Source of the DNA: Nitrosopumilus sp. | GTDB lineage: Archaea > Thermoproteota > Nitrososphaeria > Nitrososphaerales > Nitrosopumilaceae | DNA length: 64,000 nt | Direction of reading: 5' to 3' | NCBI GenBank assembly: GCA_965204345.1 | Contig: OZ241981.1 | Span: forward strand, 1,280,001 to 1,344,000 | Shown here: positions 50,910 through 51,918 of the stretch, piece after piece | How positions within the stretch are numbered: position 1 is the first letter of the stretch | Layout of the letters: each line of letters begins with the position of its first letter | Made by a program: the position numbers and the translations under genes | Notes under the pieces: generated by a model | The model's database searches: none | What the model saw: only the letters and a program-made list of their open reading frames with translations | What the model was told of the DNA's origin: nothing

Positions 50910-51326
50910 TTAACTTGTACTTTCTTCGGCTTTTGTCTCTTCTGATTTCTTTTTTAGATAATTTTCGACCCATTCTAAAGTAAGAACACCTGATTCAGAC
51001 AGATTTGTAAGAGAATTTGCAGAAGCTTCTCCTGTAACCTTGCCGTTGTTTCTTCTTAACTGTCTCCATTTTAGGGACGTGTTCCCACTTTTTGAATTGT
51101 AAATAATTCCTAACACATCCTTTCCATTCACAAATGTAATGTCTCTAATTTTTTTCAAGGTAACTTTGTCAGCTGCCTCTACATATATTGCTCCAAGGCT
51201 ATCCTCCCTTTCTGCAAAAACTTCAAAATCTTCCAAATAGGCTCTTGGCGCATATGATTTGCATGTACTTGAAATGACGAATCTTCTAAAACTTTCCAAT
51301 GAAGCAGGAGTCTCTATTGTTACCAT
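50910..51326 (-). CDS. Conserved hypothetical protein
   Basis: Start re-assigned to ATG 51326 (MVTIETPASLES...); the track's longer version overlaps the sRNA and yjbQ antisense. Confidence 0.7.
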   Translation of the reverse strand: MVTIETPASLESFRRFVISSTCKSYAPRAYLEDFEVFAEREDSLGAIYVEAADKVTLKKIRDITFVNGKDVLGIIYNSKSGNTSLKWRQLRRNNGKVTGEASANSLTNLSESGVLTLEWVENYLKKKSEETKAEESTS

Positions 51327-51402
51327 TTTGAATGATCCAATTATTAGCCATTTATCAAGCTTCTTGAAAGACTCAATAGGAATCCACCTCAAATATCGCA
51401 TA

Positions 51403-51460
51403 CGGGCCATGATGTACCTATCCCTTTGATTGATGATGAGGATCTTGAGTTCTGAGCCTG
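51403..51460 (+). ncRNA. Box C/D guide sRNA, predicted to target tRNA-Leu(CAA) C34
   Basis: Terminal stem CGGGC/GCCTG; C box ATGATG(T) 51409-15; D' TTGA; C' ATGATGA 51433-39; D guide GGATCTTGAGTT 51440-51; D box CTGA 51452-55. Confidence 0.75.
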
Positions 51461-51498
51461 TTCCTAGGATTTTAATAAATGATTTTAAATAAAAAATC

Positions 51499-51918
51499 AT
51501 GAGGTCTCTTACCGAATATCTGACGTTTAAGGTAAAAACCAGAAGGGCATTTGTCAATATTACTTCTGATGTAGAAAAACTGGTATCAAAAAGCAAAATT
51601 CAAGAGGGATTATGTCTTGTCAATGCAATGCACATTACTGCTAGTGTGTTCATCAATGATAATGAAAGCGGATTATTACATGATTATGAAAAATGGTTAG
51701 AAGAATTGGCCCCGCACAAACCAACTATGCAATATGATCATAATAATACCGGAGAAGATAATGCAGATGCTCATTTAAAACGACAAGTAATGGGAAGAGA
51801 AGTTGTAATTGCTATCACTAAAGGCAAATTAGATTTTGGACCATGGGAAGAAATTTTCTATGGAGAATTTGATGGTAAGAGATCAAAAAGAGTCTTAGTT
51901 AAAATTATTGGTGAGTAA
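51499..51918 (+). CDS. yjbQ: YjbQ/UPF0047 family protein
   Basis: [37 protein letters not shown]. Confidence 0.92.

Follow-up and report, generated by a model that had tools for sequence, protein, structure and literature searches.

The window analysed here, a 64,000-nt stretch of contig C1 (G000:C1:1280001-1344000), belongs to an ammonia-oxidising archaeon, given that its genome carries archaeal amoA. Two divergent genes in this window are separated by a 172-nt gap that is occupied by an element with the architecture of a box C/D sRNA (Table 1). The neighbour on the plus strand (51499-51918) encodes a UPF0047 protein and starts at ATG 51499, and the neighbour on the minus strand is an open reading frame without a Pfam match, for which ATG 51326 is the most likely start. 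An ATAAAT box on the minus strand at 51355-50, about 25 nt ahead of ATG 51326, agrees with a leaderless minus-strand mRNA from 51326, as do RNA contigs ending at 51307-16, and we infer such a leaderless start for this gene. Judged by its spacing, the A/T-rich box ahead of ATG 51499, of which GGATTTTAAT is kept in most same-genus loci, is likely to be the TATA box of the UPF0047 gene, which would place the sRNA outside the 5' UTR of that gene. No promoter of the sRNA itself could be assigned.

The metatranscriptome contigs of four sets cover the flanking genes only, stopping at 51307-51316 and resuming at 51511-51519, with none over 51318-51506, which says nothing either way about an RNA of 58 nt. 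In two studies the contig ends lie no more than 20 nt from both proposed start codons, which is weakly consistent with leaderless mRNAs. A 37-nt block of the gap, GCCATTTATCAAGCTTCTTGAAAGACTCAATAGGAAT (window about 51343-51384), is near-invariant in 28 of 30 same-genus loci, far above the rest of the gap; it probably comprises the minus-strand TATA box, with about 25 nt besides.

Table 1 Features of the sRNA element and of the adjoining gap, in window positions.
Feature	Sequence	Positions	Strand	Remarks
Box C/D sRNA element		51402-51461	+	contig C1:1331402-1331461
Terminal stem, 5' strand	ACGGGC	51402-51407	+	pairs with 51456-51461
Box C	AUGAUGU	51409-51415	+	6 of 7 positions of consensus RUGAUGA; final base is U
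D' spacer	ACCUAUCCCU (10 nt)	51416-51425	+	3 variable nt, then conserved core UAUCCCU
Box D'	UUGA	51426-51429	+	CUGA in some relatives; YTGA in same-genus loci
D'-C' loop (K-loop)	UUG	51430-51432	+	length and sequence vary among relatives, with indels of 1, 3 and 6 nt
Box C'	AUGAUGA	51433-51439	+	UGA invariant in alignment A1
D guide	GGAUCUUGAGUU (12 nt)	51440-51451	+	antisense to tRNA-Leu(CAA) nt 30-41
Box D	CUGA	51452-51455	+	degenerate (NNGA) in some families
Terminal stem, 3' strand	GCCUGU	51456-51461	+	6-bp stem with 51402-51407
A/T-rich box	UUUUAAUAAA	51470-51479	+	about 25 nt upstream of ATG 51499

A preliminary description of this DNA had recognised an intergenic sRNA in the order stem, C, guide, D', C', guide, D and stem, and this is confirmed. 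A single nucleotide, C51408, is unpaired and sits between the 5' stem strand and box C. Against an expected spacer length of about 12 nt, the D spacer has 12 nt; the D' spacer is shorter, at 10 nt in this genome and 11 nt in two relatives. A strict regular expression for stem-C-D'-C'-D matches the 2.12-Mb genome once, at this element, and the reversed genome not at all, which puts the arrangement beyond chance; when the spacers are relaxed and a stem of 4 bp or more is required, three loci are found in the genome against none in the reversed control. The best match to Rfam RF00095 (snoPyro_CD) in the whole genome is again this element. Its score of 32.6 bits is below the gathering cut-off of 45, so that Rfam-based annotation would miss the sRNA; the alignment spans all 58 model positions with the boxes in register, and the sub-threshold score reflects the training of the model on Pyrococcus and no defect of structure. 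In stability, the predicted fold does not exceed that of shuffled sequences (z -0.33); low fold stability is expected for K-turn RNAs, and it gives no support either. Genes for the partner proteins fibrillarin (295 bits), Nop5 (225 bits) and L7Ae (96 bits) are present in the genome. Apart from the Rfam threshold and the short D' spacer, the element has the structure by which archaeal C/D sRNAs are defined.

Two further C/D sRNA candidates stand in tandem outside the window, at C1:262831-262890 and about C1:263020-263085, both on the minus strand. These candidates (near C1:262886 and 263078) have canonical boxes and an identical terminal stem, GAGGGC/GCCCUC, and one of them is the second-best RF00095 match in the genome (28.2 bits). 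The spacers of the 262886 copy find best complements of just 7-8 nt, in 16S, 23S and tRNA-His.

Conservation across the genus and the class

A 76-nt query matches 31 of the 36 same-genus genomes at E <= 3.6e-9; the remaining five are G001, G013, G011, G031 and G028, of which G028 has a diverged copy. Boxes C, D', C' and D are all kept in the same-genus loci, bearing out the conservation in relatives that the preliminary description had set as a condition. Box C reads RTGATG followed by A or T in 30 of 30 loci, and the 22-nt block from box C' through the guide to box D is identical in 29 of 30. In an alignment of 35 homologues (A1), the 10-nt core of the D guide is invariant, and the stem columns (11-16/71-76) are about 89.5-89.8% paired, a value that falls to 31-51% when the partner is slid as a control. 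Changes on both sides occur in five of the six terminal stem pairs, and the covariation score of the stem was reached by 0 of 500 shuffles.

At the level of the class, the guide core plus D box (GATCTTGAGTKCYGA) is present in 191 of 301 sampled genomes, and the backward control gives 0; with three unpublished genomes (G271, G182 and G315) set aside, it is present in 188 of 298 genomes in all and in 158 of the 177 of family f1. These figures are too low, as the exact pattern misses cases: in family f15 it occurs in 1 of 39 genomes, whereas the guide with a degenerate D box is found in 5 of 5 examined, and the C box, D' box and stems of the f15 forms are recognisable. With a looser pattern, the guide is recovered in 18 of 20 genomes of families f26, f22 and f24 and genus g33. 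Homologues in many other families differ in stems, loops and D' spacers. Sixteen of 20 further regions examined hold an sRNA homologue; L098 and L107 lack a clear C/D' half, and no homologue was found in L111 and L112.

The D guide and tRNA-Leu(CAA)

ARAGORN, run on the whole genome, places the gene for tRNA-Leu(CAA) at C1:1787263-1787366, outside the window and 456 kb from the sRNA. Its anticodon arm reads AGGGA / CUCAAGA / UCCCU, and a canonical intron of about 16 nt interrupts it at 37/38. The preliminary description had held that the second guide is complementary to this arm, and the gene bears this out: the guide pairs with G000:C1:1787295-1787306 through 11 Watson-Crick pairs and one G:U pair, with a duplex energy of -18.9 kcal/mol. 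The register begins with U51451:G30, the G:U pair, and continues with Watson-Crick pairs from A31 to C41. The fifth base upstream of box D (N+5) is G51447, which faces C34 as a G:C pair, and the D+5 rule does select C34, as had been stated. Shuffled guides reach 11 Watson-Crick pairs against the tRNA set in 10 of 20,000 cases. The runner-up tRNA match has 8 Watson-Crick and 2 G:U pairs, and the best rRNA match has 7 contiguous Watson-Crick pairs. The guide 11-mer occurs three times in the genome: in the tRNA, in the antisense of the sRNA itself and at one other site, the last being about the chance expectation. A C/D guide is expected to pair with a stable RNA over at least 9-10 bp and to have a Watson-Crick pair at N+5; the D guide does so and the D' spacer does not. 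Judged by this complementarity and register, the D guide very probably directs 2'-O-methylation (Cm34) of the wobble base of tRNA-Leu(CAA).

The guide has G at N+5 in every homologue examined. Guide-target covariation, which had been suggested as a check, is seen as one compensatory change for the D guide and is absent for the D' spacer. In the sRNAs of family f26, C replaces U at N+2 in 7 of 7, and the tRNA-Leu(CAA) of the same family has G31 (in a G31-C39 pair) in place of A31 in 4 of 4 genes read, which by sequence reads as a compensatory change, the single such case. The tRNA of family f22 likewise has G31 and the guide there keeps U, giving a G:U pair. Covariation is rare because the tRNA arm is as conserved as the guide. 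Pairing is not kept at every position, given that the guides of f22 and f26 have A at N+10 in 14 of 14, facing C39 of the mature tRNA. Pattern searches recovered tRNA-Leu(CAA) in just a few genomes of other families.

The form of the tRNA on which the sRNA would act can be approached through the intron. In family f1 the tRNA-Leu(CAA) intron starts AUC in 39 of 39 genes read, repeating the start of exon 2, so that precursor and spliced forms alike contain the 10 nt (31-40) of the duplex core and the f1 data cannot discriminate between them. Two f22 genomes (G087 and G071) have an exon 2 that starts ACC and a 37/38 intron that starts AUCC. In their precursor the AUCC intron start restores pairing with guide N+10 to N+12, and in their spliced tRNA an A x C mismatch stands at nt 39. 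This hints, without demonstrating it, that the precursor is the substrate, and there are counter-cases: the introns of G062 and G067 start GUUG, and f26 is without any 37/38 intron. The hint agrees with the precursor substrate reported for the pre-tRNA-Met guide of Haloferax (PMC4033218) and with the frequency of intron-containing tRNAs among archaeal sRNA targets (PMC7668247). A stricter version, in which the sRNA acts only on pre-tRNA and the AUC or AUCC intron start is kept to complete the guide duplex, is a tentative idea that we rather doubt. If true, wobble methylation would be one reason why the short tRNA-Leu(CAA) intron persists across the class, and in the genomes whose exon 2 now starts ACC (G087 and G071) full guide pairing would be possible only before splicing.

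Transcription, RNP assembly, the methylation itself and its timing relative to splicing are steps that we infer. The sRNA would assemble with L7Ae, Nop5 and fibrillarin, and the D guide would pair with the anticodon arm of tRNA-Leu(CAA) over nt 31-40/41 plus G30:U. C34, which faces the fifth nucleotide before box D, would then enter the fibrillarin active site, and the product would be 2'-O-methylcytidine at the wobble position (Cm34). The substrate would probably be the intron-containing pre-tRNA.

Several other tRNA features of these genomes were seen along the way. Extra or displaced short introns lie in the 5' strand of the tRNA-Leu(CAA) anticodon stem, at about nt 30/31, in L067 (G060), L118 (G052), L195/L196 (G078 and G098) and L200 (G095), and the tRNA-Leu(CAA) of f26 has such an intron without one at 37/38. 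In G000, a tRNA-Leu(UAA) at C1 about 957290-957410 (minus strand) was missed by ARAGORN and seems to be interrupted twice, by an intron in the D-arm region and by another at 37/38 that starts AUC. ARAGORN lists no tRNA-Trp for the whole genome, and that tRNA may carry an unusual intron; it also reports at C1:346471-347494 an implausible 'tRNA-Gly' of 1 kb that contains a 930-nt intron. The T-loop reads AUCGAAG, with A in place of the usual U54, in tRNA-Arg(TCT) (C1:1006123-1006198), tRNA-Arg(TCG) (C1:1363405-1363479) and a tRNA-Met (C1:1515795-1515868).

The D' spacer and alternative readings

The D' spacer appears to be an orphan with no convincing target. Among 30 same-genus loci, 28 keep its core UAUCCCU and two read UAUCCUU, and the 5' triplet is ACC in 17 loci and one of 9-10 other variants in the rest. 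The longest complements of the spacer are 8 nt in tRNAs and 7 nt in rRNA, which is typical of shuffles; among the ARAGORN tRNAs, both precursor and spliced, the best is an 8-nt match in tRNA-Ala(GGC) that relies on variable spacer nucleotides. Genome-wide, AGGGATAGG occurs at 14 sites against about 16 expected from genome size. Other lineages have other D' spacers, namely (C)U(C)UAGCCCU in most families, UCUGGCC in f22 and further forms in f26 and f24, with the D guide unchanged, and no rRNA site shared by these spacers was found in the aligned operons. The CCU adjoining box D' can pair with the box C' A and with the first two G of the D guide (three pairs, 90.5% paired), and a C'/D' stem extended in this way could explain part of the constraint on the core. 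The spacer was also considered as a mimic of the tRNA 3' strand, AUCCCUU being common to both, and this was rejected for want of covariation.

The preliminary description had gone further and read the two guides as tiling one contiguous stretch of tRNA-Leu(CAA), with the D' guide either opening the anticodon stem or directing a second, adjacent methylation at A26 or A22. The D' core can indeed pair with AGGGA (nt 27-31), which adjoins the D-guide target on its 5' side, RNAduplex returns a bipartite pairing with the tRNA at -8.2 kcal/mol, and the predicted fold contains an ATCC:GGAT helix. However, AGGGA is the only complementarity of the spacer to this tRNA, a 5-nt match is at chance level, and it overlaps the D-guide target, nt 30-31 being claimed by both guides; in the RNP geometry of published structures, a zero-length linker between two guide sites is implausible. 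The contiguous sequence predicted by tiling is missing from the tRNA. The concatenated 24-nt string matches the real tRNA-Leu(CAA) at 18 of 24 positions, the tRNA differing upstream of the 11-nt match, and the tiling fails in one half: the D half agrees at 11 of 11 and the D' half at 7 of 13, four of these being letters of box D'. Nor does the string align without gaps to the tRNA-Leu(CAG) of the window, where the best ungapped identity is 12 of 24. A methylation at A26 or A22 finds no support, with position 26 being G and the match to AGGGA lacking covariation. By eye, the spacer does not covary with the anticodon stem, intron or variable arm of the tRNA: G126 and G206 combine the tRNA 3' strand AUCCUU with the spacer AUCCCG, G022, G016 and G025 combine the spacer UAUCCUU with the tRNA strand AUCCCU, and spacer variants are independent of those of the intron (AUAGG/AUUGG/AUAAG) and the variable arm (UUAGG/UCAGG). 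Given that other orders moreover pair the same D guide with unrelated D' spacers, joint action of both guides on this tRNA is very improbable. A D' spacer that works as a guide for another RNA, most likely rRNA, would make the sRNA dual, with one tRNA and one rRNA target. This would suit a 7-nt core that is constrained while three 5' nucleotides drift, and candidate sites exist in the LSU, one near position 2542 and one at GGGAAUAGG. The exact core complement AGGGAUA occurs in no tRNA and once in rRNA, at LSU position 2542 within the universally conserved GGGAUAACAGG stretch, but 17,114 of 20,000 shuffles (86%) also reach 7 bp against rRNA. The LSU site UUGGGAAUAGGGG of G000 pairs with the spacer at 8 of 10 positions, and there the f1-specific spacer U (G in others) faces A (C or U in others), compatible in the 4 lineages compared; against it stands a C x A mismatch at N+4, which in other lineages falls at N+5, the methylation position. 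The spacer of G213 has an 11-bp match (10 Watson-Crick and one G:U) in its own LSU, yet no site with long complementarity is common to six aligned rRNA operons. Searched in the 16S and 23S of G000 itself at 9 or more of 10 pairs, the spacer gives just G:U-rich matches, and an LSU site near position 1256 (GGGGCUAAAG) gives complement runs of 5-8 in four other families. The pattern RGGGCTAGAS was searched in five genomes; in G066, which is complete, it matches only the antisense of the sRNA itself. Depending on the lineage, the conserved core lies 2 to 4 nt from box D', so that no single N+5 site is kept, and the spacer has 10 nt. We regard a working rRNA guide as unlikely.

Two other readings concern the D guide and the element as a whole. 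The D guide might also, or instead, serve tRNA-Leu(UAA) and give Um34: the arm of that tRNA is identical but for U34, which leaves 10 Watson-Crick pairs and a G:U pair at N+5, no separate guide with GATCTTAAGT was found in the genome, and in Pyrococcus each of the two isoacceptors has a guide (PMC7994747). However, a Watson-Crick pair is reported as essential at N+5 (PMC6009581), and with the G kept there in all homologues examined we find the Um34 reading distinctly unlikely. That the locus is no RNA gene, being instead a conserved DNA or promoter element or a minus-strand coding region, is extremely unlikely. The near-invariant block just upstream, with its likely minus-strand promoter, and an open minus-strand frame through the element would be in line with it, but indels of 1, 3 and 6 nt within the element break that frame in relatives, which is therefore not coding there, and the paired changes in the stem and the class-wide antisense match to a tRNA are RNA-level signals. 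The reading that we favour, and consider likely, is a stand-alone C/D sRNA of about 58-60 nt whose D guide would direct Cm34 of tRNA-Leu(CAA) and whose D' spacer is an orphan; that spacer would not guide on tRNA-Leu(CAA), and the nucleotides adjoining box D' may partly form an extended C'/D' stem.

Relation to known systems

The C/D guide encoded in the intron of pre-tRNA-Trp directs Cm34 and Um39 and is a true dual guide for one tRNA. The chemistry and the wobble position would be the same here, but the sRNA (C1:1331402-1331461) is not of this intron-encoded type: it lies 456 kb from its target (C1:1787263-1787366), the target intron has about 16 nt, and one guide matches. It resembles the Cm34 sRNAs predicted in Pyrococcus, and by its sequence is a single-guide sRNA of known kind in a new instance. 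As the preliminary description had stated, Pyrococcus sRNAs have been assigned to position 34 of tRNA-Leu(CAA), as predictions (PMC7994747; PMC7668247, quoting a prediction of the Lowe snoRNAdb); the predicted Cm34 was not detected by Wolff et al. in the P. furiosus tRNAs analysed, according to PMC7668247. Likened by description, both are stand-alone C/D guides with an antisense stretch across the anticodon loop and N+5 on C34 of tRNA-Leu(CAA), whereas the present sRNA belongs to a mesophilic ammonia oxidiser with about three C/D sRNAs and that of Pyrococcus to a hyperthermophile with dozens. An orphan second guide is common in Pyrobaculum, where 115 of 144 tRNA-targeting sRNAs have one by the count given in PMC6009581.

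In the mesophile Haloferax volcanii, sR-tMet (Joardar et al. 2011) is a trans-acting C/D sRNA for pre-tRNA-Met, as listed in PMC4033218. It shares with the present case a trans-acting C/D sRNA, Cm34 (predicted here) and an intron-containing pre-tRNA; it differs in its tRNA, and the pairing with the intron is just hinted at here, in two f22 genomes. Bacterial TrmL (YibK) is a protein-only Cm34/cmnm5Um34 methyltransferase of tRNA-Leu(CAA/UAA), as described in PMC4615657 and PMC4033218. The tRNA, position and modification are those predicted here, but TrmL is a SPOUT protein enzyme that works without a guide RNA and is hence an analogue, not a relative. For ammonia-oxidising archaea, full-text literature searches, which covered few subscription journals, turned up no work on either C/D sRNAs or the ribose methylation of tRNA.

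Hyperthermophiles and haloarchaea have so far supplied most descriptions and predictions of RNA-guided ribose methylation of the tRNA wobble base. For annotators, the locus adds a conserved small RNA gene that lies below Rfam thresholds, and the differences between lineages, A31 or G31 and intron present or absent, form a natural series for guide-target co-evolution and intron-dependent modification. A genome with about three recognisable C/D sRNAs would devote one of them to a single leucine tRNA. Throughout a class made up of ammonia-oxidising archaea and relatives of these, the guide is near-unchanged, also in lineages with decayed boxes, which argues that the predicted Cm34 of tRNA-Leu(CAA) matters for UUG decoding in these abundant organisms.
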